This document shows, piece by piece, positions 13,474-40,626 of a stretch of DNA of 64,000 bases. The notes below the pieces were generated by a model. That model did no database searches and had not been told where the DNA came from. It worked only from the letters and a program-made list of their open reading frames with translations. Within the stretch, counting starts at the first letter, position 1. Each line of letters starts with the position of its first letter. The position numbers and the translations under genes were made by a program. Source of the DNA: Balanoglossus misakiensis (taxonomy: Eukaryota > Animalia > Hemichordata); NCBI GenBank assembly GCA_040954595.2, contig CM082576.2:18027028-18091027 (forward strand), given 5' to 3'.

Positions 13474-13734
13474 TGTAGTAAATACCGGTTACTAACCTGG
13501 TAGGTACTACGGGTTGTCTTATTCCGGGCCACAGAGTTTTGCTTGGTACTGGTCGTCAGTCCTGGTAGCGTGTTGCTCTGCTGCTGGTCCGGGTCGTTCT
13601 CGTTCTGATAGTTGAGAAACGTGGGTAAAAACCAGTAGCACAGGTGCAGGGCATTCCGTAGTGCAATTACGTCAGAGGCGTCCCACCTGTACAGCAGGGC
13701 GCCACCAACGGCCAGAAGCCCACAAATTACTACA
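13474..13734 (-). repeat. 3' LTR (261 bp)
   Basis: Identical by eye to 40627-40887; TG...CA ends. Confidence 0.97.
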
Positions 13735-13755
13735 CTCTTCCCACTTTTCTTTTTT
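13735..13755 (-). other. Polypurine tract
   Basis: Minus strand AAAAAAGAAAAGTGGGAAGAG directly precedes the 3' LTR. Confidence 0.85.
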
Positions 13756-13856: not shown

Positions 13857-16631
13857 CTAGTGATATAGACGTCTGGTGTTACGGACAGTTGCTTCAAGAA
13901 GGTGCACTAGATCAGTCCCCCTTGAGTTAGCAACAGCCACGGCCACATCCCCTATAAGAGCTGGAGTACTGGTTACATCACGAGGGCCCCCAAGATACGG
14001 CGAATCTGTTTCGATTAACAGACGCTCGATGGGCACCTCCTTCAAAGCTCGAATCTGGCAACGGTCAAATTTGGTGGTCGTGATGGAGAAACCGAAGTAA
14101 CAATTCTTGAAGCGCTTCGACCACCTTTGAACAGTGTTGACCGTACCAGTAAAATTGTGGATATGTATTTTCTGCCGTGGCGAACACCATTCCTGTACTA
14201 ATTGCAATGCTTGGCAATGCACATCTGACCCATACTGGTCCCCATATGGCCCTCTAATGTGCAGGACTAAGGGTTTCTCAGGCACACACATGGCAAGTGC
14301 TCGAGAGAGAACCCTGTCTTGGGCGCTCCAGTATTTACTTGGCTCTGTGCGGTCGAGACCCACCTCCCCAAGGGCGGCTACCTGTGTGCTCGTGACAAGC
14401 CGCTTGAGGGCTTTAAAGGTCCTTTCGTCGGCTCTTGGAGCTTTCCTTGGATGGATCCCGATGGCGATACTCCAACCTTTGGGCCGGTTCAAATCCATGG
14501 GGTAGTACTCCGGATCGCAAAAGACCTCGACGCCCCCAATGATGTTGACAGGAAAATTCGCCCTTGGGCCATTATGCCAGTTAACCAAAGCTACTGATGT
14601 TGCAGGGCAGTCCCTACCGCGAAATCGAGCCAGTGTTCGGTCAAGATGAAAGTGGGAATCCATGGCTTCCAATAGACTGTCTGATTGTAGATAATCCTGT
14701 GCTGTCCCCTGTAACTCTTGCTCAATAGGTTGGTCAGCTTGGGATTCTATTGTAATTGAGTCCAGTATCACGTATTCAACCGGGAGCTCAATTTCTGATG
14801 GTGGGATCGGGACTGAGTCCTGTATCACGTGATCAACAGGTTGCTCAGCCTGTGGGATCCTTTCAGTACAGTCTAATGAAATTTCTTTCTCTACTTGATC
14901 ACCCCATGAGATTCCCTGGGACGTGGAGTCCTGTATCACGGATTCAACAGGTTGTTCCATTTCTCCCATACCTATAATCATTGCCAAGTCTTGGTGTGCG
15001 TCCTCCACATGGATCGGACTATTTCCTGAGGCTACAGGTGAATATGTGATCTCCCTCGCATGAGTTGGAGATTGGAACTCACCTTCATTTTCGGAAACCA
15101 TTTCCTGGTCGACACAGGAGCCAGTCTCCCCCCTAGGGGTAGGTGACCGCGGCTCGCCGTGATCTGCCTCAGGATTCTCTGTTACCATTTCCTGGTCTGC
15201 ACTTGGCGAGCAGGAGACAGTCTCCCCCGTAAGGGTAGGTGACTGAGGATTTCCGTGCTCTGCCTCGGGGCCTTCCAGTTCCGGCATCGGATGACATGGT
15301 GAATGCGAGGTGATCTCTGCCACTGGGGTGGGAGACCGGGACTCACCATGCTCCCTTGGGGGTACCACGGGTTGGAAGGCTTCCCGCTGCTCCTCAGTCA
15401 GGTGCGAAAGGAGGATGACGAGAATCCTCCAATGCAGCAGGACGGCTGGTGAATTCGGTGGGTGCAGCGAGAATCGTCGTGGTACGGCCCATCCGCTGGT
15501 CTGGCACAGTCGCTTCATCATCAGACAGTTGGCTTCGGTGAGCGCAGAGGATGCTGGGACTTCTTCCAAGTGATGTTGCAGGAAGTACTCCAGCAGCTTG
15601 GTGACAGTTCCTCTGGGGCCCAAAACCCAGCCCGCCAGCTTCAGCAGGGCATGAGTAACATCAGCTGTCTGCATGATAAGGGGGTTTTCCTGTAGACGGG
15701 GGTCGATATGGTAGAAGAAGCAGTGCCGTTTGAGACGTTTGGAGGTCTGCCCACATCCTGGAATAGGGCAGGTACATGAGCGGCTGTTGGTAGATTTTCT
15801 GCTTCTTCTACCCCTACAGGAATTGGTCGCCGCAGTCGTGGTGGTCTTCGACTTCGGCACCCCCTTCGGCTCCTGTGCCATCCATACAACGGAGCGTCGC
15901 CGCCGCTTCCCGTCACGCTGTATGGTCACCTCCAAACGAGATTCCTCACCCCGCTCTCGCTTCTTTGGTTTCGTGGCCGCCATCTTCTGCGTTCCTCTCC
16001 GTGGCTGGCTTGATGTCTTTCGTGGTGGCTCACGGGGGGTACTTTTCCGTGGCTCTGCCAGGGGTCGCCGCGCAGCTACTGCTGAGTACAATTCACGGGG
16101 CGCTGCAGAAGATGGTTGTGTCGATGTTCTTCGGGGTGAGGATGCCCGCGATGTTGAGGCGATGGAGGTGACTGGGTCCCTGCCTTGCATGGTGTCTTCT
16201 ACTACAACCGTCTCCCCCGACTTCTTCAGCAGGTGCTTGACAGTCGGGAGATCGGGCTGCGTCTGTAGGCGAACATCACGGCAGGGTCCAGACGTGACGG
16301 TACTGCTGGGACGGGACTTCCGTTGCGGGATCCTGTTCTTATGCGGATCCCGATGGAGAAGATGCTTGTACAGCCATTCCTCGGAGAAGATCACATCGGC
16401 TTCGCGGCGTGTAGTCTCCACCCAATGCCAATGGCCTCTCCGAGATGCTAGTTGATACTGGCGTAACAGCATCCTCTCCTTTTCAGGGAGCGTGACCTTG
16501 GCCAGCCCGATGCCGTAGGTGAGGTCGAGTGGTGGAAGCAGAATCCGTTTCCGGTCTGCCTCCACCACTTCTTGCCAGGTCATATGCTGCTTCTTAGGGC
16601 GAGGTCCCCCGCGATACCGCTGGGAGTCCAT
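13857..16631 (-). CDS. ORF3 (~924 aa): basic/disordered N-terminus, C2H2-like zinc finger, acidic repeat linker, C-terminal TatD-family metallo-nuclease
   Basis: TatD motifs DSHFHLD, IGIHP, ALGEVGLD, PLVLHIR, HIHNFTG, YFGFS, LLIETDSPY (13857-~14665). Zinc finger CPIPGC...HCFFYH at ~15706-15777. First ATG at 16631, just after the pol stop. Confidence 0.9.
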   Translation of the reverse strand: MDSQRYRGGPRPKKQHMTWQEVVEADRKRILLPPLDLTYGIGLAKVTLPEKERMLLRQYQLASRRGHWHWVETTRREADVIFSEEWLYKHLLHRDPHKNRIPQRKSRPSSTVTSGPCRDVRLQTQPDLPTVKHLLKKSGETVVVEDTMQGRDPVTSIASTSRASSPRRTSTQPSSAAPRELYSAVAARRPLAEPRKSTPREPPRKTSSQPRRGTQKMAATKPKKRERGEESRLEVTIQRDGKRRRRSVVWMAQEPKGVPKSKTTTTAATNSCRGRRSRKSTNSRSCTCPIPGCGQTSKRLKRHCFFYHIDPRLQENPLIMQTADVTHALLKLAGWVLGPRGTVTKLLEYFLQHHLEEVPASSALTEANCLMMKRLCQTSGWAVPRRFSLHPPNSPAVLLHWRILVILLSHLTEEQREAFQPVVPPREHGESRSPTPVAEITSHSPCHPMPELEGPEAEHGNPQSPTLTGETVSCSPSADQEMVTENPEADHGEPRSPTPRGETGSCVDQEMVSENEGEFQSPTHAREITYSPVASGNSPIHVEDAHQDLAMIIGMGEMEQPVESVIQDSTSQGISWGDQVEKEISLDCTERIPQAEQPVDHVIQDSVPIPPSEIELPVEYVILDSITIESQADQPIEQELQGTAQDYLQSDSLLEAMDSHFHLDRTLARFRGRDCPATSVALVNWHNGPRANFPVNIIGGVEVFCDPEYYPMDLNRPKGWSIAIGIHPRKAPRADERTFKALKRLVTSTQVAALGEVGLDRTEPSKYWSAQDRVLSRALAMCVPEKPLVLHIRGPYGDQYGSDVHCQALQLVQEWCSPRQKIHIHNFTGTVNTVQRWSKRFKNCYFGFSITTTKFDRCQIRALKEVPIERLLIETDSPYLGGPRDVTSTPALIGDVAVAVANSRGTDLVHLLEATVRNTRRLYH

Positions 16632-16666
16632 GATCTGTACAAGAAAGAATAAGAGACATGATGAGG

Positions 16667-19600
16667 TTACACTGAAACTGCGCTTATTTCGCTTGGTTTG
16701 CAGTTGGGACAAGAAAACAGTGCTTTTTTCTTAATTTCGGTTGGTGTAACATTCACACACGCTCCATGAAACCATTCATAGCAATAATCACACTGGATCA
16801 TAAGTTTCCCATCATCAGGTTTCCTGCAAAGGCAATATACTTCACCCATTCCTGCGCTGTCCTTAAGTAAGGTCTTCCTAAAGGTTACTATCCAGCGAGG
16901 AAGCTCTTTATCCTGGCAAAGCTTTAGCCGATCGTGATGGGCGGTCCAAACCTCTCTTCGCAATTTGATGCGGAAGAGATAGGGTGTGATTTTGGTGATG
17001 ATGACCCCTGGTCCTTTCCAAGGTGGGCATAGTTTCCGGCATTTGCCTTTAGTGGTTCCGGTATCCAACAGATATACTGGATCCCCTACCTTGAAGGACT
17101 GCTTGTTCACTCGGAGGTCGTAATCACGTTTCATTCTTTCTTGTGTGGTCTTCAGTATTTCCCGCGCTGTCTCATGAGAATTCGTTATGGCCTCCTTCAA
17201 TTCATACACATACCCCTCATGAGATTGGTCAGTGTTTGTCCTGGGAGGCCGGAATACAAGATCAGCGGGCTGGTTTATTTCCCTACCTAACATCATCCGG
17301 TTGGGCGTAAAACCAGTGCTGCGGTTGACTGAAGAGCGGAGAGCTCCGGCGATCTGTGAGAGAAATTTATCCCATTCTTTCTGTGACTTGATGTAGCATC
17401 TGATTGCGTTCATCAAAGTGCGATTCTGCCGTTCCGCCTGGCCATTAGCAGATGGTCTGTAAGAAGTGGTTCTTGTTTTATGGATATGAAGAATCTCACA
17501 AATCGCTGAAAATAACTGACTTTCAAAGTTTCTTCCCTGGTCAGTGTGAATTTCAAATGGATACCCGAACCTGGTAAAGAATTCAGCTACTGCGGCGTGT
17601 GCTGTTTCCTCAGCATTTTGTGTTGGCAGCGGTATACATTCTACCCACTTGGTGAATTGATCTACCATTACCAGGATATACTCATTACCCCGAGGTGTCT
17701 TGGGTAACGGCCCTAGGAAATCCAAGTGAACTCGTTCCATCGCTGCCCCCGCATGAAATAGGGTCAGCTGATGTCGGTGGTGTCTGTGTGCTTTCTTGTT
17801 GTGATTGCAAATTGCACACATTGTGACATACTTGCGAATGTCGTGGGACATCCTATACCAATGGTATTTGGTCCTGATTCTGGCTTGAGTGCGCTGTATT
17901 CCCTGGTGCCCACAAGATGGAATATCATGATTCAACCGTATAACTTCATCTTTCATGGTATTAGGGATGACTAGTTGTATGGTGTTTTCATCTGTGGCCG
18001 ACTTTCTCCACAGTACTCCCTCCTCAATGAAGTATAGGTCACGGTTGATCCAATAATTCTTTGCTGCAGGGCTGGAGAGTCTCAGCTCTCCTTCCTCAGG
18101 AACTTTCCCAGTTTCAAGCCATGTGATGAGAATCCCCAGTGTTTTATCAGTCTGCTGTGCCTGTTGGTATTCTTTGTGAGAATATCCTAGGATGGCTGTT
18201 CCCAGTTTAGTGGAATCCTCTCTGGATAGTATGCAGACTTGTACAGGATCCGGAAAGTGGGAAATTTCGAGGTTCGAATGAGGCACGTCGATTAGTTCAT
18301 CCTGGACTGTGTCACTGGTGATTCCGCAGCAAGTTAATAGACCCAAGTTACCTCCAGGGTCCCATGGCCAGGTCTCTTCATCTTGAATTGCTGGTTGTAT
18401 TCGTGGGTTCATGATACCGGTACATTGGTTCACCACATATGGCCCTTCGGTTTGGTGGAGTTGGCTGTTCCCGTGTTCGTTTCTGGGTTCAGCCATGGTC
18501 AGGGGAATTACATCATCCACCTCCTTGATGAACGGGCTCCAGTTTCGATGTGCTCTGCTGCAATAGTTGCATCCCCCGCAAGGTAAGGATTCCAATTTTG
18601 TTCCATGCTCAAAATTGGTGCAGGCACTTTGCTCGGGTAATCTTGACAGGGAGTCGGCGTTGATGTGTTGTTTTCCTGGTCGGTGTTGCACAGTAAAGTT
18701 GTACTGGCTTAGTTCTTCTAGCCAGCGAGCTAATTGGCCTTGTGGTTCTTTGAATCGTATTAGCCATAGCAAACTGTGATGATCTGTCCGTACCAGAAAT
18801 TTGTTACCAAGCAAGTAGTATCGAAACTGCCGGGTGAACCTTACGACTGCCAGCAATTCTTTTCTTGTGGTGCAGTACCGTCTCTGTTCAGGTGTCAGGG
18901 CATAACTTCCATAAGAAATTGTTCTCTCCTTGCCGTTCTGTATCTGGGATAACTCAGCTCCGATGGCAAAGTCTGAGGCATCCGTGTCTAGAATGAAGTT
19001 ATCCTTTGTATTGGGCAAGGTCAGAACAGGGGCAGCGGTGAGTGCTTTCTTGATGTCCTCAAAAGCTTGATGTTGCTCATACCCCCAGGCGAATGGTTTC
19101 TTCCCGGTTACACTGTACAGAGGTACCGCTAACTTGGCATAATCCTTGATGAAGGCGCGATGGTAGTTCGCAAATCCTGCAAATTTTTCCACGTCCTTCG
19201 TGTTGATAGGGATTGGCCATTCTTGGATCATCCGAATAGATTGATCTTCAAGAGATATTCTGTTTCTACCAACTTTCCTACCCAGGAAACTTACTTCCTG
19301 TTGGAATAACTCACACTTTCTTGGCTTGAGTTTCAGTTGGTACTTCCGTAGTCGTTTGAAGACTTCCCGGAGATTTTTAAGGTGTTCTTCGAAGCTTGAT
19401 CCGAGCACCATTATATCATCCAGAAATGCCAGTACGATGTCCCAAGTTAGGCCCCTTAGTACTAGGTTCATCACTCTGGAGAAAGTAGCAGGTGCGTTGC
19501 ACAGACCAAACGGCATTCGGGTAAATTCGTACAAACCGTATTTGGTGGTGAAAGCCGTTTTCTTGCACTCGGGTGGATTAATACTTATCTGCCAGTATGC

Positions 19601-21058
19601 CGAGTTGGCGTCCAACTTGGAGAACCATAGACATCCTGATAGAGTGTCCATACACTCCTCCACCAATGGCAGCGGAAAAACGTCCTTTACGGTGATGTTG
19701 TTTAGGGCTCGATAATCCACACACCAACGCACGCTTGCATCTCGTTTTCGCACTAGAACTGGTGCCGAAGCCCATTCGGAGATTGATGGTCTTATAACTC
19801 CGGCATTCAGCATTTTCTTTAAGTGGGCTTCTTCTTCCCCTGCAAAACACATTGGAGTGCGCCGTAGACGTTGCTTTATTGGTGGATTGTCTTTTGTGTC
19901 GACGCTATGTGTGATTGCAGTGAAATTTCCCAGATCAAATTCGTCCTTGGCGAAAACATGACTGCAGGATCTTTCAAACAGATTTCCTAAATGTGAAGGT
20001 AGCCCGCCTACCGGCTGAGGGCGTACTTCAGTCCTCTGTTGGATGTCAGGTGATGGGACGGTGATCACCTCCACTTCTGTAGCTGATGCGATAGGATCCT
20101 TGCTCTTCAGAGTTATATAATTCTCCGTCGGGTTGACTAAACAAACCTTAGGTGATTGTTCCCCCGAGTGAAGTGTCCTGGGCATCATTACTTTCAATCC
20201 CTGGGTTGGTTCTACCAAATAGTCGGTTAGATCCGTATCGAGTAAACAGGATATTCTGACCACACTATTCGGTGGGATGATTGTCCGTCGCTTCAAAGTT
20301 ACCTTTGCCACTTTTGGTGAATGATCCCTCTGTCCAAGGGTCATAGGTATGTGTTCCTCCCCCAAATGGAGCCAGTTGTTACTCATGTTGATGGTTGCTC
20401 CATTTGCTTGTAGGAAATCAACTCCCAGTAGCATTTCGTCGCCTATTGGGGCTACGTATATATCGGCATTGAAGACGGCACGTCCCAGCTGGATGTCAAC
20501 GGGTCCGACCAGGTTGGCTTTCATGGTTAACTGTCTTCCAGCTGTTTGCATGGTAACTTCCCGCAATATTGGAGGTTTTACTCGCAGACTGTTGTACAGT
20601 TGGTCAGAGATAATAGTGACTTCTGCGGCGGTATCGATGATAGCGGTAGCGGACTGGTCTCCAATTTTTGCTGGGATGCTATACATTGAACTGGACACAA
20701 GTTGGTTAATGACAACCATAGGCATGTCATTAGCTTCGGATGTTGCCATACTGGTCTTTGACGATTTTGTCTCTTCCACTGTTGAGTTGGTCACATCTGC
20801 GCAATGTGTACCATCATCAGTTGGAGTTGGTATAGTCGTTGTATACACATCTGCACAATGTGTATTGACATCAAGTGTTACCGATTCAGCTGATGGCGAT
20901 GGCACGTCAATATTACAGTTGCGATCGCCCTCCGTGGAAGCGTTGAGGCCGTAGGTTATGGGTTGTTGGGTCAAACTTTGGCCTCTGGGCTTGACCCTTT
21001 GGTGTTTAATGGACTGGCCGGCGCTGTTTCCTTCTTTTCCGATGTTCCATGGGGACAT
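16667..21058 (-). CDS. pol: Pol polyprotein: aspartic protease, RT, RNase H, integrase, C-terminal PHD finger
   Basis: IIDTAAEVT (PR); VRWCVDYRALN, MPFGLCNAP, AFLDD (RT); LDTDAS, TDHHSL (RH); H-x6-H...CAIC, DFLGP, TDQGRNF, NGQAERQN (IN); YCLC...CDYCYEWFHGAC...CPNC (PHD). 1463 uninterrupted codons. Confidence 0.97.
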   Translation of the reverse strand: MSPWNIGKEGNSAGQSIKHQRVKPRGQSLTQQPITYGLNASTEGDRNCNIDVPSPSAESVTLDVNTHCADVYTTTIPTPTDDGTHCADVTNSTVEETKSSKTSMATSEANDMPMVVINQLVSSSMYSIPAKIGDQSATAIIDTAAEVTIISDQLYNSLRVKPPILREVTMQTAGRQLTMKANLVGPVDIQLGRAVFNADIYVAPIGDEMLLGVDFLQANGATINMSNNWLHLGEEHIPMTLGQRDHSPKVAKVTLKRRTIIPPNSVVRISCLLDTDLTDYLVEPTQGLKVMMPRTLHSGEQSPKVCLVNPTENYITLKSKDPIASATEVEVITVPSPDIQQRTEVRPQPVGGLPSHLGNLFERSCSHVFAKDEFDLGNFTAITHSVDTKDNPPIKQRLRRTPMCFAGEEEAHLKKMLNAGVIRPSISEWASAPVLVRKRDASVRWCVDYRALNNITVKDVFPLPLVEECMDTLSGCLWFSKLDANSAYWQISINPPECKKTAFTTKYGLYEFTRMPFGLCNAPATFSRVMNLVLRGLTWDIVLAFLDDIMVLGSSFEEHLKNLREVFKRLRKYQLKLKPRKCELFQQEVSFLGRKVGRNRISLEDQSIRMIQEWPIPINTKDVEKFAGFANYHRAFIKDYAKLAVPLYSVTGKKPFAWGYEQHQAFEDIKKALTAAPVLTLPNTKDNFILDTDASDFAIGAELSQIQNGKERTISYGSYALTPEQRRYCTTRKELLAVVRFTRQFRYYLLGNKFLVRTDHHSLLWLIRFKEPQGQLARWLEELSQYNFTVQHRPGKQHINADSLSRLPEQSACTNFEHGTKLESLPCGGCNYCSRAHRNWSPFIKEVDDVIPLTMAEPRNEHGNSQLHQTEGPYVVNQCTGIMNPRIQPAIQDEETWPWDPGGNLGLLTCCGITSDTVQDELIDVPHSNLEISHFPDPVQVCILSREDSTKLGTAILGYSHKEYQQAQQTDKTLGILITWLETGKVPEEGELRLSSPAAKNYWINRDLYFIEEGVLWRKSATDENTIQLVIPNTMKDEVIRLNHDIPSCGHQGIQRTQARIRTKYHWYRMSHDIRKYVTMCAICNHNKKAHRHHRHQLTLFHAGAAMERVHLDFLGPLPKTPRGNEYILVMVDQFTKWVECIPLPTQNAEETAHAAVAEFFTRFGYPFEIHTDQGRNFESQLFSAICEILHIHKTRTTSYRPSANGQAERQNRTLMNAIRCYIKSQKEWDKFLSQIAGALRSSVNRSTGFTPNRMMLGREINQPADLVFRPPRTNTDQSHEGYVYELKEAITNSHETAREILKTTQERMKRDYDLRVNKQSFKVGDPVYLLDTGTTKGKCRKLCPPWKGPGVIITKITPYLFRIKLRREVWTAHHDRLKLCQDKELPRWIVTFRKTLLKDSAGMGEVYCLCRKPDDGKLMIQCDYCYEWFHGACVNVTPTEIKKKALFSCPNCKPSEISAVSV

Positions 21059-22130
21059 TCCCTCTTAAAATGGCCTATCTCGCCGCACCCATAGCAACCA
21101 CGGCTTCTCGGAGATGGGGATCGGTACCTTGATGTCTGCTGCGTTGTCACCACTTTGGTTAATTCGGCCAGTTGGGTGGTGACAGTCTGCAAAGTTGCGC
21201 TGATTGCCGACATCTGCGTCTCCAGCCTCGACATCCTCCCCTGCATCTCAGTTCCTCCGTCTTTGCTTCTCGGGCGGATGGGAGCTCTTTCAGGAGAGGG
21301 TGATTGTTTTCGCTCGTACCTGGAGACAGATCGTGCTTCGATGTTGGCTTTCGGGTATTCCGGATCAGGACTTACAAATCGTACTTCCCGCCTCTGCGAT
21401 CGGATGCCATAGATTGCTTGATGATTATACTGGAATCTTTTGACAGTATCGATCGCTGCTTCGATGGAAGTTGGACGCTGATTTGCTGCCCATTGGCCTG
21501 CTTCTCGATCACAACATCCTTGGCAAAAGCGCATCACAGCTTGAAGCTCTATGGTGGCATCGCTGCTTTCTTGAAATGCCTGCATCGCAAGTGAATAAAC
21601 CCTGTCCGCCCATTCTTCTAATTTCTCCTCGGTGTTTTGTCGAATCTGGGCGAACTGAAGCTGACTGGATTCTGGAATCTCTTTCAAGCCGAATCGTTTC
21701 TCCAGTTTTTTGAGCAGCTCGTGATAGCTGACGTCTGCGTTTTTCTGGAGGATCCTGGTATAAACTTCACTTGCTTTCCCCTCTAAACACCAGCACAGAT
21801 AATTTTTGCATTCATTGAATGACATGTCCTGCATCTCGGCAAATTTCGTGAATTTTACCTGATATGCCTGCCAGTTTCCGGAGCCATCGTAGATTAGCGT
21901 CCTGGGAACTGACATTGGGATGTGACGATGACTTGATCTGTCCATCCGGTTATCATGCTGGTAGTAGGGTTGAGTTCTGGGAGGAGCGAATTCTGTTGGA
22001 TAATGGCCATCATAATAATCCGGTGATGCACCCGCTCGTGGTCTGGACACATTCACCCGTGATGGACGATAATTCTGCTCATCTTCAGGCCAGGTCGCAT
22101 ATCGCTGTTCATCGCGAACACTTCGTGGAT
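20971..22130 (-). CDS. gag: Gag, C-terminal part (capsid-like region and CCHC zinc knuckle)
   Basis: YDGSGNWQAY...LEGKASE...LEKRFG...QIRQ..EKLEEWA and CYGCGEIGHFKREC. The first residues of the listed ORF (MHKPGLSSCA) come from the CACTA end. Confidence 0.93.
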
Positions 22131-22998
22131 ATGCACAGGATGAAAGCCCAGGTTTATGCAATGCTTAAAGTTGGTATAAATATGATTAAAGCTGTTCTTG
22201 CAATCATCTTTATGCAGCATAAAGATATTCATTTATACATCTTTATGCAACTCTATAAATTGGTATAATGGCTTACCACAAATAATCACCTTTATGCACT
22301 CTCATAAGGGTGAATAATTCATGTACACCTTGCATCACATTTATGCATTCTAATAAAGGTGAATAAAAGGATGAATTTCTATACACCTAGCGTCACGTTT
22401 ATACAGCTTTATGTCAGAATGATCAGAATATTTGCTTTGGCTTCTGATTCTCATTTCTCCTTTTGGAATATTCACTTTATCCACAGTGAGTTTACGAATG
22501 TTGGGGGAATAAGTGTCATTAACAATGAAAGACTTATACCTCCTTTGTCCAGTACACTTATTGTTTCATGTATAACTAAAGGGTAGAATATATGTTAGTG
22601 ATAGTTCTTTTCTGTGGCCAGCTTTGTCTTCAGCCAATCTTTTCATTCCTGCACACGTACCAGTACACTCCACCACCGTCAAATAGATCACACATACACA
22701 AGCTATATATACATGCAGTGGGACATTGTCATGAATTCTATGATTTTTTATTACTATAAGTACTAGTAACTACTATTTACAATATAATGAAAAATTTATT
22801 AAACTAGAAAGTAAAAAAACTGAAAGAATAACCTTTACGAACTAAAATACGAACTTAAATAAAAATCACAAACACAAGTAAAAACAATTCTAAAGTAATT
22901 TCAAATGTCATTAAAAATGAAAAGTCAAGTAGAAATATTTAGTTAAAAATAGAAAAACAAAATAAATAAACACATTATAAAATGAAGTACAATATCAA

Positions 22999-25900
22999 TC
23001 AGTGGGGACTAGTACATCCCTCCTCCAGAGAACCTGTGGTTCCAGAAGAAGACGCAGAATCATCTGGACTTAACCCAGACGCAACCCTGACTGCCCAATC
23101 CTCTGGGTAGTCAGGCCGCTCCCTGGAAGAGGGGGGTCCATCTGACCTGGGAAGGCGAAGCTGGCGCTGCTTTGCCGATAGATGTCCATTAACTGTTTTT
23201 TGCTTTTACGCAACTTTTTCCTTTCCCAGGTCAGAGGACGTCTTATGTATTGCTTGATCTTCCCCTCATCATCAAAATCGCTCTCTTCCGAGGAGATATA
23301 CTCAGCTGTTAGTACGCGTTTAATTTTCTCCTTGTCCTCTTCAGGCCAGTCAACCGATGTCAGGGAGGACTGAAGCTGTTTGAGTTTCTGAAAATGAACA
23401 ACATAGGATTTGTCAATAAAAAATCAACGTAGAGCTCATATTTAACAAGATCCTATTGCCATCATTGGATTTGTAATTGTTTATATATAAAAAATCTCTA
23501 ACAAAAAAGACAAGAATATTACTCAACGAACCCAATTGTTACATTAACAGATGGAACTTTCGCAGTCACCTAACTGGTACATACAACAGTATTAGACATA
23601 AATTTGAAGCTACTCACCTCTCTTTTACGCCCCTGTCGACGGCATGTTTGTTTGTGGGCCTCTGTCTTTCCTTGGCTGTTCAACCGATGTTTGTTCTTTT
23701 GCCCCCGAAAAAATGTTCTGATTGCTTCTGTAATAGGAATTAACAGAAAATTAGCAAGCAGCCTAAGTTGTTTTTACTTTTGTATGTGTCATGTTAGCAT
23801 CTCCTTAAAGCTTCAACTTTAGAAGGAATGTGAGCATATTATAAGTAAATATGTCCAGCTCAAGTAAGTAGAGGACTTTCCTTTGATCCAACCATGGCGG
23901 TACTAAGAGTGCCTCCATGATCCAACGCAAAGGGTTGTGATTTTGCAATATTAATTAAAAGTATCAGATATTTAATGTTATATCATAATCAAAATCCATT
24001 TACCTTTGGCCTCGAGTGTGTTGATGTCATCACATCTTAACTCCTGCAGCAAGATTTCACATGATTGCTGGTTCTCCACAGCATCAAATCTATAAAAAAG
24101 AGAGAAATTTCATGAACCATTTAATTATTTTTTGTCAAGTTATCCTAGGCTAAACAGATGAAGTATGTGGCTTCTAGAATTCTGGCCCCAACATGTTCCA
24201 GCCTTGGTCGATGCGGCCTCTCTTTTCAATGACCCACATCAATGTGGCCCCTAAACCCAAGTTTCAGTGTCCTATCACTATATAGTGTTGTGTCATTTCA
24301 GCCCCCTGACGGATGCAGGTATAATTATATAGATTTATTGTATCTTAAATAAGTAAACTTAATTCTTGTGTCAAAAAAACTATTGTATGGGGCATGCAAA
24401 GTCATCAGCACAATTCAAAGATAAAAACATAATCCACTGGCTTCTGTGATGGAAAAATGATCAATTTAATTTAACAGGAACATTTTATTACTAACATATC
24501 ATTGTGTAGTTGTGAATAGAAAGAATGGCATTACACGTATAAGTTATCAAATTCACGCTGAATGGGAAGGCAATTTTGGACCGTGAGAAATTTCATTCTT
24601 ACAACTTGGAATGTATATCTTTAAATTGATGAAGACCTTTACAACTGAAAACTTGAATAACATACATGTAGGGATAAACTGTGTTTACGCCATCTTGAAA
24701 ATTTGCAGTGCATTATGGGTCAATTGAGTTCCGGTTGAGGGGGAGTAGCGTCTACAACCTTACCTATCCAATTTTCCAGCGGTTTAGTCAGATTTTCTTC
24801 AAGTAACGTTAGTAGTAGTAGTTACTTGAAGAAAATCTGACCAAACCGCAGGAAAAAATGGATAGGTTGTAGGCGCTACTCCCCCTCAACCGGAACTCAA
24901 GTGACCCATAATGCACTGCAAATTTTCAAGATGGCGTAAACACAGTTTATCCCTATACAAAAGGTCCACCTGTACTTCACAACATTAAAAATAGAGAAGA
25001 AATGTAAATACCTCTCAGTGACATTAAGACCAGGAAAGTCATCCCTCTGCCTCAGTAAGTTGTACTTTGCACGGACTGTTCTCTGGGGTGAAAATATAAA
25101 GTACTATGTTAGTAAAATTGTTAAATCATTTTTATTTAAAACATTCTGACAGTTCATTTGTTTGCTTCAATCACCCTATCAATCAACATTTATGGCATAG
25201 ATTAGCCTGGTCACCATACCCAGTGTGTTGTAGATAGACTCACACACATCGAAAACACGCTGGGTATGGTGACCAGGCTAGGCATAGATAGGCCTAAGTG
25301 CATATTTCTTGAAATGTATCTTTTGCACAGCACTGGCCACTATCAAAATTTGCATTGTAAAGGTTACTAAAACAAGCATTTATGCAACATGTGGTTCCGC
25401 ACAAAAAGGTCAAAATGTTATGCATATTTTAGAAATTAACCACAAAAATACTGAAAAAGTAGCCCAAGTGTCACACTGGGTAAAATTAAACACCTGACAT
25501 TGTATGTGTCCACCTGACACCTGGCCCCAAACAGATAGGTTGGAGGTGTTAATCCTTAGTTACACAAGCTCAGGTCTGGCCTGAAAAAAGCGTCTCAAAT
25601 CTGAAGCATTTCATTCACACATATTTATTCCCTGTGTGACCACCATATAATTAAAGCTTGTACCCCATTATAACCAATGGTCACAACAAGAGACACTGAC
25701 GCACAGATTGTTAAACAATGCTATTGTAATGCTATTGTTTGGTAGCTTTGTCAGGAATGTGTAGCATTAATGACATATGCAAATTCAAACTGTGATACTA
25801 GTATTGACCTCTGACATTTATCAGGTGACGACTGAGTATTTCAGTGTTCAATTTATAAGTTCTCCTAAAATCTTTCAAACATAAGAGCCCTTCCACACCG

Positions 25901-26549
25901 AGTCGCAAAATGTACGCGATGTTAAAAAGAAATGTACGCGACGGCCGTGTCAGGCTACCCCTATTTGACGACCTCAGGAAGCTTAATTATGCGTACCAAC
26001 AAGCGTCACGCTTTATGTGCTTGCGAAGCTTCAGTCCCCCGGTCCGTAGCTGGAAATAGCAGGTGCGTGTCTCGGTAAAGACCTACACACACAGGCACGC
26101 GAAAAGATCGCTTCGTGATCGGTCGCGAAATACGCGAGAGCCAAAAATTTCCTGTCACGAAAATAACCTGTTTTACAGTACCTTATTATTATACCACGTA
26201 CTGATCACCTTCCATTGAGACCCACCATAAAGCTACAACCACAGACCTCCATGCTAATACCGAGGTCTGCTCCGATCGGCTTATGGCCCCGTAGGACAAC
26301 TTCAGGTTGCCCGTGTGTCCCATTGCATTAATGTTAAACAACGGACGATTAACTATGGTGCGAGAGTTGTATTTAAAAAGAAAGAATCATACTCACAGAC
26401 ACGATGTTGCTAACATGTATCTTGGATTTTCTGCGGGCTGCTGATGTTGCGTGAAGCGCTGAGAGTTTTTCTTCTATTACCTTTAGGGACATCTGCATTG
26501 CCGGTACTTGTTGAGCCGCGGAGCAACCACAAAACGTATTTTCATTCAT
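22999..26549 (-). CDS. Spliced second gene of the CACTA element (5 exons; acidic SSEESD / RPLTWE type, resembling C14orf93-like proteins); frameshift in the last exon
   Basis: GT-AG exons ~26549-26397, ~25082-25012, ~24089-24005, ~23727-23618 and 23387-22999 join in phase: MQMSLKVIEEKL...RTVRAKY...AIRTFFRGQK...EYISSEESD...RRPLTWERKKL; GPPSSR...DWAV follows in a shifted frame. Confidence 0.65.
24669..24955. mobile_element. ~287-bp near-perfect palindromic (foldback) MITE in an intron
   Basis: tagggataaactgtgtttacgccatcttgaaaatttgcag... mirrors ...ctgcaaattttcaagatggcgtaaacacagtttatcccta. Confidence 0.85.
25203..25280. mobile_element. 78-bp MITE with 21-bp TIRs and a 9-bp TSD
   Basis: TAGCCTGGTCACCATACCCAG...CTGGGTATGGTGACCAGGCTA, flanked by GGCATAGAT on both sides (25194-25202, 25281-25289). 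Confidence 0.85.
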
Positions 26550-28170
26550 AGTTGAAGACGATGCAAAGAACTTCTGAGTTTGTTGTAATAAACGACATGG
26601 TATTTATACTGCTGAGGAAAGGTTGACTTTTCAAAATTCCCGCAAAAGTCAAAGGCAGCAACTTTGATTGGTTGTAAGAATATCCCCGAACTAATAACCA
26701 ATCAACGTTAAATTCACAATCACGTGTCTCAAGGATTCCGTGCCTGTACAATAAACTTGATAAACATCCGGTGTTTTTAATGTCAACATGCGTCGATCAG
26801 ACGCTACAGGACGCTTCTGAAAGACGCTACGAACATCATACTGTGCTTCACTGACTGTGCTTCGAGGTTTCTCACTCCTGAGTCCAATGATCGAAACGCA
26901 AACGTGGCTCAAGGTACGTATCCTTGTTAAATTGTTGATATTTGTCTGGAGGAGTGGGCATCATTATCTTTGGACCCGGGCCGGGCGCAGTAGGCGTACG
27001 ATCGCGTGAGACGCACGCGGAGCCGCGACTGATGTAGCCGATGTAAAACAAAACTAAACCCCTGTCCGTTTACCTTTTAGCTTTAAATTTGATAAGTTCT
27101 TGCCGCGGATCAAAGACTAGATATCGCAAAGCTTTGATTAGGTGGTTGTCGGTAAATATTTATTGATAGTAAGTGGCAAAATCGCCATCCGAACATATGT
27201 TTAACAATCGCATTCTGCCCTTTCCGCTTCGTTAGGGGTGGACCACTTGATTTCAGAGGGTGAAGACAAAATTGTCGAAAGTTTTTTTTTTTTAGCCGGG
27301 AAAAAAAATGTTCGTGCGGGCTAAGTAAAAAACAAACAAGTATGATTCCGACAAAGCTTTGAAAAACCTGGTTGAACAATACCAAAAAATTAAATGCTCA
27401 ACAGTCGCCATTTGGGAAATAATTCCTCCAGCTCCCATGAATCAAATGGTCTACCCCTTACAAACCTTTCTACTATATACTGCGGTTGCATCAGTCGGGG
27501 TTTCGAGTTCCAACTAAGCATGATTTTGATAGCCTCGGTCATGTGTGAGGCTTGTATGACACACATGATTAATTATAATATAATTTAAGGCAGCTAGTAA
27601 GTATATATGTCCAAAGATAGAGTCTAAATGTAGATACAGTGTATATGTACTCTGGAATGATCAACGTGTTAGGGTGTGTAAACTATGTGCATACGAGAGA
27701 CAATGCTGCATGGTTGAGTCAGACTGGAGTAGCAATGGCAGAATGCTCAGCTGCTTTTACTTGTACTTGCTGATGTAGCTTTACAGGAAAGCAATATATA
27801 TACTAGCACGTGGATATTGTGGTCTCAAATATGTGTCAACCAAGCAATTTTCCTCTTCAAATTTTACATAAGGATCATGATAATTAGAAAGAGTTGGCAA
27901 CAATAAGTAGAACATGTCTAACATTTTCTGAAGTTGTGTTTTGATAATTCAGTTGAATATCATACCAGTTGGTCGCATACTGAAATTAAATGTACAATGA
28001 CTTTTAACATTAACGTTTTTATTACTTCTGTTTCAACAGCAACTGCAATATTACAGCAAACCAGTTTCCTGTATCTGTCACCTGCACTTGGATTTTGACA
28101 GTAGCTTTATGTTTGCTTTTGAATGCCTCATATTCACCCTTGAGTGATTTACTCCCAAGACATTCATGAA

Positions 28171-31100
28171 ATGGTAAGTTTCAATGCTTATATGTATCGT
28201 TGTTACACAATATAGTTCAAAGCATATAATAAATGTTGCTATACGGTGCTTGAAAGATAGAATTTATGCATACTTGCCAAATTTCATTGTAAAACCAGAA
28301 GCGATGCAAAATAGGGTTTCATGCGTAGGTAGTGATTTTCCAAGAAGTCCAGTTATCAATTTGGTTCTACAAAGTTTGAAAATTTATGGCTGTGATTGTA
28401 AAGAAATTGGTATCAAGTCCAATTTGCACAATGTTTTGAAAAATTAATGACAACTTTTCTTTTATTTATAGGATTTTCAAACACCAAAGAGAGGTCGTGT
28501 GTGTCCAGTGTGTCATGAGACCTTCAGTACAAGAAACTTTTTGAGACATAAAAGAACATATTTCAATTATCAATCCTGTTCCTGGGAGGTACATATACAT
28601 GAAAAAAGATCATCAAAATCCAGACGGAAAATTACAATGATTCATACAAAGAACCCACTGGATACTGAAAGCTCTGATGATAATGGTAATTTAACTGCAA
28701 CATTTATTTAGTTCTGACATTGCCCAATTTCAGTTGCCTACTTTTTCTGCCAGTGGTCTCCTAACATTGTATGCCAGCACCATTTTGTCACATGGTGCGT
28801 AGATGTAGAATATGTTGCTGTGTAGTTTTTTTGTTTTAGTGTGATTTCAAAAACATGCAAATATAGTGTACACCCTCTTCGGGGGGGGGGGGGTCACTGT
28901 AAAGTGTATAGTTCGCTTGCATCTATCGGTGTGACCATATGTGTGTTGGAGTTGAACTGGTCCAAGCAGAATTCTTGCTGGCATCTAGTTTTCTTATCAA
29001 CTATTTAAAAAAATATTGTTAGTGTCATGCTCTGGTTATTTTGTGATGTTTTTTCATTTCTGAAATGTGTTGTGTAACAACAACATGTACGTGTTTGTTC
29101 TTTCCAGGATGTGGTATCCCAGATGCTGAACCTTTTATGATGTCACCAGGCTCTCCTTTGGAATCAGCTTTTAGGTGTCATCTGATAAAGAAGGCACAGG
29201 CCAGTACTCCTAATATATCCACTGCATCAAGTGAGAATGTCACTGAAGACGGAGGGTTGTTGAATAAGGATGACTCGGACTGGGATTTGCAGGTAATTAC
29301 TCAATCCATCCCATGAATTTAGACTATGTACACTGTCAACACAGTTGGTGTTATGGTACTGTTACTGGTTTGGTGGCAAGCAAGACATTACATACTTTAA
29401 AACAGGAATTTTTTACGAATGATACATTTTTGCAAACTACGCAACAGTCAAAATAAACGCGACAACAAACTGTCGTGTAAAATGTTTTTCTGAGATAATC
29501 ATGCAGTGAATTATGAGAACATAACAGTTGTCTCTTGATATCGCCGGAAAATTTCACGTTTTTACAGTATTACAAAGAGAATGCCATAAGGCAAAATAGT
29601 ATTGTTTAACAATGACATATTTTACCTGGCAATTTGAAGCAACTTACAAGATTTTATTTGGTATATCAAGCCACATTGAAAAATGTCTCTTTGACTTTGT
29701 AAGAATATCTGACTGGTTGGTTGTCTATGCCAAACCATGATGACATTGTAAACTTGGTGATTAAAATTAAATCTGCCAAACCATGATGACATTGTAAACT
29801 TGGTGATTAAAATTAAATCTATTATATATCTTTCCCTTTTTCATAGTGGTCTGGCTCTGATAGTGACATCTCAGGAGAGGAGTCAGCGTTCAGCGATACT
29901 GAAGATGGTATAAGTGGTAGGGCAAGTCAAGTCCAGGAAGCTGCAATTTCATCTAGTGATAGTGAAGACGATGATGGTGGGGTAATTTGGGAAGAGGAAA
30001 ACGAAGAAGAATTTCTACAAGATTTGGGTCAACCTTTATTGGTTCAAAGACACAGGTCCAAAATAGCTAAAGTAAATGAGTTGGTTTCATGGATTCTTTA
30101 TTTTCTGTTGTATTGGCAAGCCAGCTGTCATGTCAGTGATAATTGTTTGTCATGGCTTTTACAGTTTCTGTCAACTGTTTTTAACATCATTGGGGTAACT
30201 GTGCATAATGAATATATAACTGAACTTGCTGTGTGTTTACCAGCATCTCTGTATATGCTTCGTCAGTGTGTGAACCTTGACAGGGATGATTTCCTTAAGA
30301 AAGCTGTTTGTCCAAATCCTAGATGTGCTACATTGCATGATATTGATAACCTTGCTGTTAGACAGAATGGCAGATTCTTTGCCAAATGTTGTGACAAGAA
30401 GAGATTTAAGAATGGGAAACAAGTAAAGTGTGGACAGCCACTTGCAAAGCATGTGATTTTAAATGGGACTGTTAGATTCTATCCAATGAAAGTGTTCTCA
30501 TATGTCAGTCTTATTGACTCAATAGAAAGTATCTTGCTTCGTGCAGACATACCTGCTAAACTAGAAGAATGGAGAGAGAAACATACAGAACAAACAGACT
30601 GTGAAGGTAACAAAATATATACAGATATTTATGATGGCAACATATGGAAAGAATTTCAAACTTATGATGGTGAAGATTTTCTAGCAAAAGAATGGAATTT
30701 AGCATTATCAATGAATGTTGATTGGTTTCAACCCTTCAAAAACAGAAATGATTACTCTGTTGGTGTGATATATTTTGTGATACTAAATATGCCACGGGTA
30801 ATCCGCTTTAAGTTTGAAAACGTTATAGTTGCTGGAATCCTACCTCCTCTTGATAAAGAACCATTCAGTTTGAATTCTTTTCTCCAGCCTTTTGTCAGTG
30901 AATTACAGAAACTTTGGAAAGGTTTGAATTTAGGAACCAGTTCATCAAGTGTCCCTGTCAAAGTAAGAGCAGCTCTACTTTCTGTTGTGTCAGATATACC
31001 TGCTGCCAGAAAAATAGGTGGTTTCAAGTCTCATGCAGCCAGTGTTGGTTGTTCAAAGTGTTATAAAGTATTTCCTGGTGGCTTTGGAGAAAAGAAGGAC

Positions 31101-32540
31101 TACTCTGGCTTTGACAGGGATAACTGGCCAAAGAGAACAAAGGCAAAGCATAATAAATATGCCCATGATGTAAATAATTGTAAAACTGTCAAAGAATCTA
31201 ACAGGCTTTCTCAGAAGTATGGGACATATTACTCTGTTCTTGTTGAGCTACCATACTTTGATTGTGTTAAGATGATTTCAATTGATCCAATGCATAACTT
31301 ATTTCTTGGGATTGGTAAAAAGATGTTCAAGGTATATCTAGATATGTTCTTATCACCCAAAAAACTTAGTGTTCTTCAAAATAGAATACAGTCCATGACA
31401 GTAGCATGTGACATTGGTAGGATACCCAATAAAATTGCTTCAAATTATGGGAAATTTTCTGCTGATGAATGGAAGTATTGGATTACTGTTTTTTCCATGT
31501 ACTGCTTGAATGGGCTTATTCCTGAGAATCACTTATTATGTTGGGAACGGTTTGTTTTAGCCTGTAAAATATTATGCAAGCCATACCTGTGTGAAGCTGA
31601 TATCAGAAAAGCTGACATCTTGTTATTGAACTTTTGCATTAAGTGTGAGACGCTGTATAGTAAGAAAATGATTACTCCAAACATGCACCTTGTGTGTCAT
31701 CTGAGAGAGTGTTTATTTGACTATGGACCCATTAGTGCATTTTGGTGCTTCCCTTTTGAGAGATATAATGGGTATTTTGGGGATATTCCCACTAATAACA
31801 GGTCAGTAGAAATACAGTTTATGAGGAAAATTACAGTACTGAGGTTTGTACAAAACAAAGAAATGAAGAATGGTCTTTCTGGGATATTCTCAAATCTGAT
31901 TGAAAGACCAGGATCAAAACAAGATGTATGCAAGGCGAGCAATTTCTTTCTTCTGAGTGCTCCTGATGCAAAATTAATGGAAAACATTAACTGGGGATGT
32001 AATGAATCTGTATATGTCCCAAATGCGTATGTTGAAGGAGCCCTTTCTGTTGAGGATACAAACCTAATTAAAGCTGTATACGAGTATATGTATCCAAATA
32101 AAGTTGCAAGCTGTATTAGTAAACTTGTAAAAAAATATGCATATGTATATATCTTTGGAGAGAGATTTGGGTCTAAAATGGCATGCAGAATGTTAAGAAG
32201 TGCAAGAGTTATGGCTAAATGGGCAGGTAACACTGGGGACTTTGATATTTCTCCATGTAATCTTCGACCTTGTCAGGTTGATTGGTATTTTAGTCACTCT
32301 GTTGAGATAGATGGCAAGAGACTTGTACACAACTTTGCAATGGTAAGATGGTATAAGCCACATGAAAACAAGGACAAATTTGGTAATTGTGTTGAAGTCT
32401 GGCAACAGAAGACATTTGAACCATATGGGAAGTGTAGCTTTTTGCCAATACATCGTATTTCTTGCCGCTTTGCCTGTACTGATTTGAAAGATAATAGCCA
32501 AGTTGTCAGTGCAATCAACCGCAGAGTTGTTGCATATTAA
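28171..32540 (+). CDS. CACTA/EnSpm-type transposase, spliced (exons ~28171-28173, 28472-28685, 29108-29292, 29847-32540)
   Basis: DIYDGNIW, LSMNVDWFQPF, DIPAARKIGGF, CSKC, IDPMHNLFLG, PNMHLVCHL, GPISAFWCFPFERYNG. Upstream exons have canonical GT/AG sites and stay in phase, encoding CPVC...H and an acidic tract. Confidence 0.9.
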
Positions 32541-35500
32541 TATAAGAGAGAAAGAAACCTATGTCATGCTCCCCTGTAATTTTCAGTGTTAAGTATGATG
32601 CATCTTGTATATTTTTCATAGTTGTACATTTTACTTGAATATTCATATCTGAAATAAATTTATTACTTTCATGAATGAATTACTTGTCTCCAGTAACTTT
32701 GTTACCCACATAAACTAGTGTGTATGTGTGTGTGTTTTGCTTAAGGGTCAAATTAAGAAGTACATGTATACAGTTTCATGAAACAAAGCAGACATAAGCT
32801 TTTTCTGCTATGCATGGTAAAGGCCTCAGCCCCAGGGGACAAAATGATTCTGCCCACAGACTGAACAGTTTATTGGAAAACAACAATGTGTTAATAATCT
32901 ATCATTATTTGACCTGGCTGTGTAACGCAGCTATGGGGGTGGTGCTCTGCTGGTTTCCCCACCAGTAGCTGTGATCCATATATCATAACGAAATTGGGTC
33001 ATTTTAATACTGCGACCAATCTTTAATAGGGAGGACGTTTAAACGGCAAAGGGAAACAAAACGAGCGTAATTCAGGCGATTTTCCAAGGAGTTTTCAAGA
33101 TTCAAATACAAGCAGCAAACTTTGACCTTCACTCTGATCTGATTCATTGTCTTTGTGCAAAGACTCTAATTAGCATATCAATGGAAGTCATTCACTGCTT
33201 GGGAATCTTGAGTACACAATGGAAAAATCATAAAGATTGAAGGCCGTGTCAGACATGCTGGTTAAAACCGCGTTTTATGATGTGGTTGGCAGTTGTATCA
33301 CTACTAAGCTAATATCGCATTTACAGAACTAAAATTGAACTGATCACACACATCGATAGCGCCAAACAAGGGGTGTATAATGATTGCATAAAATGAGTTA
33401 AATTGTCGATTTCGCCCGTGCAGTGTGAACAAATTGCGCGTAGTGCAGTCAGTAGATTCGCAATCCAGTTGCTGTCATGTAGGGCATAATTGAGAAGACG
33501 GTGCGGCCGGCACTGTTCGCTAGCACATGTCATTAGCTCGACTACAGTCTGAGTTCGGTTCGGAGAGCATCTACTTCTCGACTGGATATTAAAGAAATTT
33601 TGGCAGTCAATTATATGCTGCAGGGTGCTTTTACATTCAGATGTACAGCGCAACATGGGTTACAATTTCGTGTTCAAACACCGGTAGCAAGAGGTCAGAA
33701 TTTGACTCTGGCAGCTCTTCAATTACATTCGCATTCACTCAATAACAATTTCTGGGTGAGACGTAAGTCTCTCCCCAGTCCGTGCCCCTTCAAGATTTTG
33801 AGAGGGTGTACATACAAGTTACATGGAAGTATCAGACTCTCTCACATCCCCTCTCGCCGCCTATAACTATACGCAGGGTTGTGGGAGAGTCTGTCCGCGG
33901 AAGCGGTCGTGGGGGTGGTGGTTACCGTTAGGCCGTAAACGAAAACATGAAAACTGTTTGAGATTCAATGTTTCTGGTCTTTTATACTGATGTGATCAGA
34001 AATAAGAAGAGAAACCATACTTGTCGCTTCAGTTTGGAGTATATTATTTGAAATGATGAAAAACGCGCAGGGACGAACGCACGTCTTTGGAAACTTAGGC
34101 AGTGATCTAAGAGAAATAGTATAGAGAGGCGTGCAGTTTCTCAGACACGCAGTTTTATCTGAATTGCGTGTAGTGCGGCACAGCGCTGTAGAAGTCATAA
34201 AACTGCCGCAACATCGAAGTAAGCCGCTTCGTGGGAGCTACATCGCGGGCAATAATGTCAGTTGAAGTCGGTTTGGACTTATGACTTCGCTGAATATTTT
34301 AAGCGCCGAACCACGATAGATTTCTTGCCTGTCATAACTCATCGGTGCCGATACCAACTAGGCCAAATCTGATTTTTTCTCTTCTAAAGACTTCGTAACA
34401 CATGCCGAGCTATGTTTTCGCCCCAAGTGTCGCGCTCTGTTCATTGTCAGTATCGGGTACGTTTCAGTGATTCATTGAGTTTCAAGAACTTTGAATTCAC
34501 TGATAATAAATTACCGGACTCATCTACATGTAAATGTCTACAGTTCGAGTCAACTGCTCGCTTATGTTGACATCAGTAGTTTCGTCTACCGTGACAGCCT
34601 TATTTATTGAGTACAAATTCAAGTCTACATTTCTTTAATCGATTTATTCTCGAGGACCGATGTCAGGATTCATAGATTTTTTATCGACTTGTCGCCGCAA
34701 TACTCGTTCACACAGGTTCCCGAGAACCGACTACGGCCCCCAGACTCCGGTTCTCCGGGAAACTGTCTTTCATTGATAAACCGAGTTGCGTCAGTACCGG
34801 TAATTCACTGGCTCAAAATTCGTGGTATGGGGAATTATTCGCTTGTTGGCTATTAAAAAATAAAAGTCTCTGAAAGCCGGTGAGATCGTGTCTGTCTGTA
34901 CTACTTCGGCAATGAAACTCGGCAATATTCTGCTTGTTAAGGTCTAGGGCCTACCAGTTCACGTTTCATAGCGTCTTGATGTGCTGCACTCTCTGCCTGC
35001 GCACTTTGATGGTGTCTTGTCTCAGTCACTTGCACGACGTCTTGTTTTATACGATCGTTTATTGAATTTCTGGCAGAATTTACAGTTCATAACGTCACCA
35101 GGACGGTAATACAACCAACGTTCACGGTCAGTTTACCACTAGAACGAAACATAAGTTTTCGGCGGTTACGGGGCCTTCCCGTGTTTTTCACTAAGTGTGC
35201 GAAACGATTTATCATAACTCCCTGAATCGGCAAGATTTCTGTTGCGTCAAGAGAAAAGGTTCTGCTACATTTTTACTTAATTCTAACATTTCGCGTGCAT
35301 GATTAAGAGAACGCGCAGCAATCGATGCGTCCTTTGATGCTGTATGTGCCGCGGTCGGTGCAAAGATTTCTACGCTACAATCAAATTATCATTCTCTGTC
35401 GAACAATGAAAATCCAAACTCAAATGGCCAGCGCTGATGACTGATATAATTCGATGTCATTTTAATTGTGACATTTTATAATTGGCGATACGACTAAATA

Positions 35501-40624: not shown

Positions 40625-40626
40625 AT

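Follow-up and report, generated by a model that had tools for sequence, protein, structure and literature searches.

A conserved splice acceptor signal before the TatD nuclease gene of a Ty3/gypsy retrotransposon from Balanoglossus misakiensis and of related elements

The donor of an env-type subgenomic mRNA usually lies in the leader or in gag, downstream of the primer-binding site (PBS). The env genes of gypsy and other insect endogenous retroviruses (ERVs) are made from spliced mRNAs (PMC4276936; bioRxiv 10.1101/2023.08.03.551782). Juno and Vesta, long terminal repeat (LTR) elements of bdelloid rotifers, carry non-env third open reading frames (ORF3s; a DEDDy exonuclease and a GDSL esterase) that, in the words of the report on them, 'are expressed from spliced messages' (PMC5408684), and foamy virus is described as having its major splice donor within the LTR (PMC3694450). 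Here we describe a Ty3/gypsy LTR retrotransposon on the minus strand of a 64,000-nucleotide stretch of the genome of the hemichordate Balanoglossus misakiensis (GenBank assembly GCA_040954595.2, contig CM082576.2, positions 18,027,028 to 18,091,027; hereafter the window, in which all coordinates are given). The arrangement proposed for it is a combination of known features, namely spliced env, enzymatic ORF3s and an LTR donor, into a TatD ORF3 variant of env-type subgenomic splicing. A comparison of related elements suggests that a conserved 3' splice signal at position 16635, immediately before the TatD-encoding ORF3, quite probably yields a separate subgenomic ORF3 mRNA.

The element resembles errantiviruses (Drosophila gypsy, ZAM and idefix) and retroviruses in that a third ORF (ORF3; 13857..16631, minus strand) is located behind pol (16667..21064, minus strand), the acceptor lies just past the pol stop, and gag-pol would form one intron. 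Unlike an errantivirus env, however, ORF3 encodes a TatD nuclease that is predicted to be soluble. Whereas splicing in insect ERVs is described as joining env to a short peptide, to an AU or to a Gag peptide, ORF3 has its own ATG after the acceptor, and, in a further difference from errantiviruses, the donor probably lies within the LTR, ahead of the PBS. The latter position is that described for foamy virus, and a donor so placed is present at both ends of the genome. In foamy virus the donor reportedly precedes the poly(A) signal and has control over polyadenylation, whereas a conserved poly(A) signal, like a conserved branch point or initiator, was looked for among the elements compared here and could not be placed. 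The resemblance to Juno and Vesta, as these are described, consists of a Ty3/gypsy-like organization and an enzymatic ORF3 with intact catalytic residues, which in Juno/Vesta include a 3'-5' exonuclease. The present ORF3 is distinct from theirs in containing a TatD TIM barrel instead of a DEDD domain and in being a multi-domain protein of 500-1100 aa, and the element belongs to an old clade with a PHD-tipped integrase and a helix-hairpin-helix (HhH)-tipped Gag. We found no description of a TatD in an LTR element in the open literature, including the accessible parts of PMC6238403, PMC6962438 and PMC13524379; this search did not reach Repbase reports, subscription journals or bioRxiv supplements.

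The original prediction placed a splice acceptor directly before ORF3, and its coordinates are exact: the minus strand reads TCTCTTATTCTTTCTTGTACAG/ATC ATG G (the slash marks the junction), with the AG at 16636-16635 and the ATG at 16631-16629. The predicted distance of approximately 30 nt from the pol stop is also correct, the TAA (16669-16667) being located 32 nt before the AG. The acceptor region (16635..16669, minus strand) contains a branch-like GTAAC, which overlaps the pol stop, or CTCAT, followed by a pyrimidine tract and CAG. This tract (14 of 16 positions) is the richest among the 300 YAG sites of the element, a 35-nt AG-free zone precedes the acceptor, and the acceptor ranks second of 697 AG sites when scored with an approximate weight matrix. 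The chance of finding a comparable site in the 36-nt gap is ∼0.8%, and shuffling of the 45 nt upstream gave p = 0.012. A short intron at the pol stop was ruled out, because the nearest GT would yield 36 nt.

Conservation among family members had been named as a check of the acceptor, and the relatives bear it out. The 24 loci compared were taken by ORF3 match, and 14 of them show the pol-ORF3 junction together with the N-terminal domain of ORF3. The ten excluded loci comprise four that stop short of the ORF3 start (L162, L165, L175 and L181), two that are decayed (L183 and L188) and four that belong to a distant group (L184-L187); L180 was counted at its third in-frame Met, and the frames of L176 and L179 are broken further downstream. 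A pyrimidine tract and CAG were found 0-16 nt before the ATG that opens the N-terminal domain in all 14 relatives (15/15 with the window element), and in each of the 15 a CAG acceptor scoring 1.5 or more lies no further than 20 nt from the ORF3 ATG. The score of the weakest target (1.5) was reached by 103 of 1554 control ATGs (Mann-Whitney p = 9e-11). Even with the most favourable ATG of the 180 nt after pol chosen for each, 2 of 13 other Gypsy elements reached it. None of 13 gag ATGs has such an acceptor, although these are likewise preceded by non-coding DNA. When the local 45 nt were shuffled, p was <0.05 in 12 of the 15 elements (combined p = 4e-14, uncorrected for kinship); the other three acceptors are weak (scores 1.5-2.3, shuffle p 0.065-0.11). 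A branch-like motif is present in 6 of the 15 elements only. An acceptor for a spliced gag message was also considered and is unsupported, as the ATG-free stretch scores at least 1.5 in 2 of 13 leaders.

The distance from AG to ATG falls into phases 0, 1 and 2 in 4, 8 and 3 elements, respectively, and that from the pol stop to the AG ranges from -3 to 173 nt, the signal of L176 overlapping the pol stop. The junction DNA varies freely among lineages, yet the acceptor signal follows the ORF3 ATG. Because all three phases occur, ORF3 appears to use its own ATG without a fixed fusion, and a non-coding first exon fits this pattern. Readthrough or frameshifting into ORF3 was ruled out, as both the frame offsets and the stop-to-AG distance vary. 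The distant TatD group (L184-L187) has an acceptor 37-85 nt before the first Met, with scores of 4.7, 7.8, 3.3 and 1.0. The protein P0005 starts with ...FYFQT-MEGRSD, and its relative P0012 starts at MEGRSD. To judge from the protein alone, the extra N-terminus of P0005 is as expected if the tract and CAG before the true start had been translated.

As partner donors, two sites in the leader had been proposed. Their positions are correct: AAG/GTAAGA is located at 40139..40147 (minus strand; G of the GT at 40144) and TTG/GTAAGT at 39804..39812 (minus strand; 39809), and they rank second (score 6.9) and sixth, respectively, of the 513 GT sites, a further donor-like site in gag (AGG/GTAAGT, 39022, minus strand, phase 0) being third. 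Shuffled leaders reached a score of 6.9 in 15 of 300 cases, and in 11 of 300 they held a pair of sites scoring 4.9 or higher, so that the two leader donors are only modestly above chance. Their role as partners is not supported, because none of the relatives has a donor at the corresponding place in its leader. The window leader (39449..40626, minus strand; 1178 nt from the LTR end to the gag ATG) contains no ATG on its sense strand, versus ∼17 expected, and none of 300 shuffles was ATG-free. The leaders of the relatives, in contrast, contain 5-30 upstream ATGs each, one of which overlaps the PBS itself in L168, L178 and L180. Since the window leader is ATG-free, the two leader donors would still be usable in the window family, and it is possible that they are alternative donors in that family only.

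A leader donor downstream of the PBS is thus present in the window without being conserved, and the donor signal that is conserved lies upstream of the PBS. The candidate major splice donor of the window element, CAG/GTTAGT (40644..40652, minus strand; GT at 40649-40648), lies within the LTR and precedes the PBS by 25 nt; its score is 4.5 (shuffle p = 0.028). In 9 of the 12 TatD elements with a findable PBS, the LTR contains a donor consensus that precedes the PBS by 13-62 nt, the sequences in the relatives being CCG/GTAAGT, CAG/GTAGGA, CAG/GTGAGC, TAG/GTGAGT (twice), TCG/GTGAGT, AAG/GTAGGA and CAG/GTGAGT. Within 90 nt upstream of the PBS, a donor scoring at least 4.2 is present in 9/12 TatD elements versus 5/152 leader windows of equal size, and in 1 of 10 other Gypsy elements (L196, whose ORF3 status is unknown); a cut-off-free rank test of TatD against other Gypsy elements gave p = 0.005. 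Where two PBS-like matches were found (L177, L178 and L188), we took the one after the LTR start defined by the polypurine tract or the one of clade type. L189-L191, which belong to the clade by pol identity but have their ORF3 off the contig (scores 2.4, 4.4 and 3.6), were counted in neither group. These comparisons make the LTR donor the likelier main splice partner of the ORF3 acceptor.

Under the mechanism that we propose, transcription would start within the 5' LTR, and a short non-coding first exon would be cut at a donor ahead of the PBS, close to the 3' end of the LTR (here likeliest 40649). Leader, gag and pol would leave together as a single intron, and ORF3 would be translated from its own ATG, 3 nt past the junction, whereas RNA left unspliced would be both the genome and the message for gag-pol. 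The spliced ORF3 RNA would be translatable but not copyable, because it would contain neither the PBS nor the upstream ATGs of the leader.

Several points weigh against this proposal. The evidence for splicing is wholly comparative, and the splice-site matrices are approximate. A single assembly (G372) supplied 13 of the 14 relatives, some of which (L173/L174) are closely related to each other, so that the independent lineages number approximately five including the window. On the donor side, the cut-off of 4.2 was set after the data were seen, the LTR donor is weak or missing in 3 of 12 elements (L168, 2.4; L172, -0.9; decayed L188, -2.4), scores of 3.6, 4.0 and 5.7 occur among the 10 control elements, and at 4.5 the LTR donor of the window falls below the leader donor at 40144 (6.9). 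In several LTRs, moreover, ATGs precede the donor by 8-46 nt and, if they are transcribed, would act as upstream ATGs. Finally, a DNA transposon nested in the window copy (see below) contains, on the transcribed strand, 5 acceptor-like sites scoring at least as high as the real acceptor and 24 AATAAA motifs.

The closest alternative keeps the acceptor and the subgenomic mRNA but places the donor at 40144 or 39809, downstream of the PBS as in retroviruses. No donor-like site upstream of gag is stronger than that at 40144, and the ATG-free window leader would make the ORF3 AUG the first one from either site; however, the lack of a matching leader donor in the relatives and the ATGs of their leaders, including those overlapping the PBS, render this arrangement rather unlikely, although it could persist as a minor or family-specific isoform. 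It is very improbable that the acceptor instead fuses a coding exon to ORF3, with the Gag HhH joined via 39022 or Pol via 17089 to give a DNA-binding HhH-TatD or integrase-TatD protein. Both sites are in phase with ORF3 in the window, and env is reported to be spliced to a Gag peptide in some insect ERVs (bioRxiv 10.1101/2023.08.03.551782). Among the relatives, however, the acceptor occurs in phases 0, 1 and 2, an ATG always follows within 16 nt, and the gag donors are conserved neither in place nor in phase.

Expression of ORF3 without cis-splicing, whether by spliced-leader trans-splicing, from an internal promoter or through reinitiation past the pol stop, also appears improbable. Trans-splice sites, too, show an acceptor near an ATG, and the pol stop is near the ATG in several elements. 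The conserved cis donor-like site in the LTR argues against this explanation; readthrough, frameshifting or reinitiation would need a conserved stop-to-ATG spacing and frame, which are not observed, and a promoter alone would leave the CAG and pyrimidine tract of 15/15 elements unexplained. The view that the acceptor pattern is due to chance, or follows from a T-rich spacer and the context of the start codon, has some appeal in that non-coding spacers are pyrimidine-rich and three acceptors are weak, but it is largely refuted by the composition-preserving shuffles and the gag ATGs described above and is hardly credible.

The protein that would be made from an LTR-to-ORF3 spliced message is an open frame of 924 aa, with a helical N-terminal domain (approximately aa 15-95), a C2H2-type zinc motif with a helical domain (282-421) and a C-terminal TatD nuclease domain (650-924; Pfam TatD, E = 5.7e-36). 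The linkers are disordered, basic and acidic, and an AlphaFold2 model based on 50 sequences contains three confident domains. The TatD model superimposes on YcfH (1yix) with a Z of 28.8 and a root-mean-square deviation of 2.5 over 245 aligned residues. The ligand set HxH, E, H, H, D is intact, which together with the TatD fold places the domain in TatD group II, and the ligands are conserved in the non-gap rows of an alignment of 191 proteins (H660, 169/176; H662, 161/176; E756, 177/187; H791, 175/185; H825, 175/184; D876, 169/182). The zinc motif and an HWR motif are kept approximately as well as the TatD ligands in the same alignment. Hydropathy analysis detected no transmembrane segment in ORF3 (best 19-residue value 1.38; the N-terminus is hydrophilic); ORF3 is therefore not an env, and an errantivirus-type envelope glycoprotein was ruled out, TatD being the sole match and an anchor being absent. 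A search with only the middle domain gave no homologue at E 1e-3, a search of the ESM Atlas returned only unnamed matches, all under 0.9, and whole-model match lists, which TatD matches filled, gave no fold match for the N-terminal and middle domains.

The group II TatD nuclease TATDN2 reportedly resolves R-loops. The features shared with the group II (HxH) proteins YcfH, YjjV, TATDN2 and TATDN3, as described in PMC10085689, are the HxH, Glu, two His and Asp ligands and the fold; the identity to solved TatD structures is, however, ∼22-26%, and unlike these the TatD domain of ORF3 is fused to two folded domains and is retrotransposon-borne. The ORF3 TatD is predicted to be an active two-metal group II TatD nuclease; the characterized proteins of this group are 3' exonucleases and apurinic/apyrimidinic (AP) endonucleases (PMC10085689). 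Its role is a more tentative matter: it may well be a metal-dependent 3' exonuclease/AP endonuclease or an RNA-DNA hybrid nuclease that acts on the replication or integration intermediates of the element, or it may act against host nucleic-acid defence, although the odds fall slightly short of even.

Homologues of ORF3 are numerous; those from named sources belong to bivalves, abalone and echinoderms, with Ruditapes, Dreissena, Saccostrea, Mya and Strongylocentrotus among the genera. The integrase tree had 25 rows, L172-L174 being left out as too short, and in it the 12 elements with a PHD finger and a full ORF3 form one clade (support 100/99, identity 55-82%). The TatD tree repeats the integrase sub-clades, namely L167+L168, L170+L171, L176+(L169+L177) and L178+L180 with L179 and L182. 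The original prediction had regarded ORF3 as an integral gene of the element, not passive cargo, and this holds: the catalytic residues are kept in >90% of the aligned homologues and the two trees agree, so that long co-divergence, not a recent cargo, is indicated. L184-L187 form a Gypsy group without the PHD finger, whose shorter ORF3 has the zinc motif and TatD but no N-terminal domain, and in their close kin L197 no ORF3 was seen in the 1064 nt after pol; this difference hints at gain or loss of ORF3.

Whole elements were also found on animal contigs in three of the 380 prokaryote-collection assemblies searched (G372, G373 and G254), species-representative bacterial assemblies that contain many animal retrotransposon contigs; G372 gave 237 pol matches. 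A protein deposited as 'MAG: TatD family hydrolase [Sedimenticola sp.]' (P0029) is 100% identical to a broken Gypsy ORF3 (G372:C655, =L167), and such bacterial records therefore represent host contamination. No ORF3 relative was found among the viral contigs searched or in 401 genomes of a second order, and scans of metagenome and genome contigs gave at least 160 loci at 24-33% identity that, among the matches listed, are apparently ordinary prokaryotic TatD genes.

Many uncharacterized TatD genes of bivalves, abalone and echinoderms, as well as some 'bacterial' TatD records, thus appear to be the ORF3 of one retrotransposon clade, and what was a domain annotation becomes a gene with a conserved expression route. 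The LTR-to-ORF3 junction provides an exact and cheap test in the public RNA data of any host of the clade. Moreover, with the rotifer DEDDy exonuclease and the unrelated TatD, two nucleases are now placed in the env slot, which suggests that LTR elements repeatedly benefit from a nuclease of their own. As a tentative overall picture, an old marine-invertebrate Ty3/gypsy clade might run an accessory-nuclease programme, in which the LTR donor removes PBS, leader, gag and pol and the TatD message is translated but never copied. The TatD would then clear RNA-DNA hybrids or counter host small-RNA or DNA-sensing defence, and the LTR donor might govern which LTR polyadenylates, as in foamy viruses, a solution reached independently.

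The retrotransposon shows all of the expected landmarks, with LTR ends TG...CA, a PBS, a polypurine tract and a target duplication. The 5' LTR (40627..40887, minus strand; 261 bp, TGTAGT...ACTACA) and the 3' LTR (13474..13734, minus strand; 261 bp) match at 261/261 positions, and a 4-bp target duplication (CTGC) flanks this young element inside a unit of a satellite array. The PBS, TGGCGCTGCGAC, is located at 40613..40624 and the polypurine tract at 13735..13755 (both minus strand, identified from the sequence); the PBS type, TGGCGCTGCGA, is common to the window element, L162, L169 and L172. The gag gene is in two pieces on the minus strand, a 5' piece (38935..39448) encoding the N-terminal HhH (Pfam HHH_3, E = 3.3e-8) and a 3' piece (20971..22133) encoding a capsid-like PNMA/Retrotrans_gag region and a zinc knuckle (Pfam). 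The open pol frame (1465 codons) encodes protease, reverse transcriptase, RNase H and integrase, which is the Ty3/gypsy order by Pfam, followed by a C-terminal PHD finger. This finger was found in 14/14 clade relatives versus 0/13 other Gypsy elements. The HhH DNA-binding motif of Gag lies at 39448-39320 and the PHD finger at 16840-16700, and a Gag and an integrase so tipped suggest chromatin-guided integration. Membership of Troyka was ruled out, since this group, as described in PMC12440569, needs CG...CG termini and a 3-bp duplication, whereas the element has TG...CA and 4 bp.

The gag gene is split by a nested CACAG...CTGTG DNA transposon (22134..38934, strand not assigned; 16,801 bp, identified by its termini and a 3-bp target duplication), which contains a Transposase_21 ORF (29847-32540, plus strand; Pfam). 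It sits within the predicted intron, between the leader donors and the acceptor, and its insertion is very recent, because the LTRs of the host retrotransposon are still identical. The intron of the window copy would be 24,015 nt (24.0 kb), 16.8 kb of which comes from the nested transposon, and this copy may therefore yield little ORF3 mRNA; the signal in the window reflects the programme of the family and need not operate here.

The satellite into which the retrotransposon is inserted (5972-13473 and 40888-42411) consists of ∼18 copies of units of ∼440-530 bp with a higher-order pattern. ARAGORN predicted a tRNA-Gly(ACC) in one unit only (13349-13431), which is probably spurious. A Helitron at 909-5478, broken by stops or frameshifts, contains an OTU protease ORF and, upstream of Rep, an ORF with a 63-bp (21-aa) tandem repeat. 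A second Gypsy element (43129-49549), with 132-bp LTRs (44826-44956 and 48686-48817; 99%), is nested in a non-LTR reverse transcriptase gene. It is followed by DIRS-like RNase H and recombinase remnants (50046-51117), a 21-bp tandem array (51421-51856) and an internally duplicated element bounded by inverted ends of 424 bp (56136-60446).

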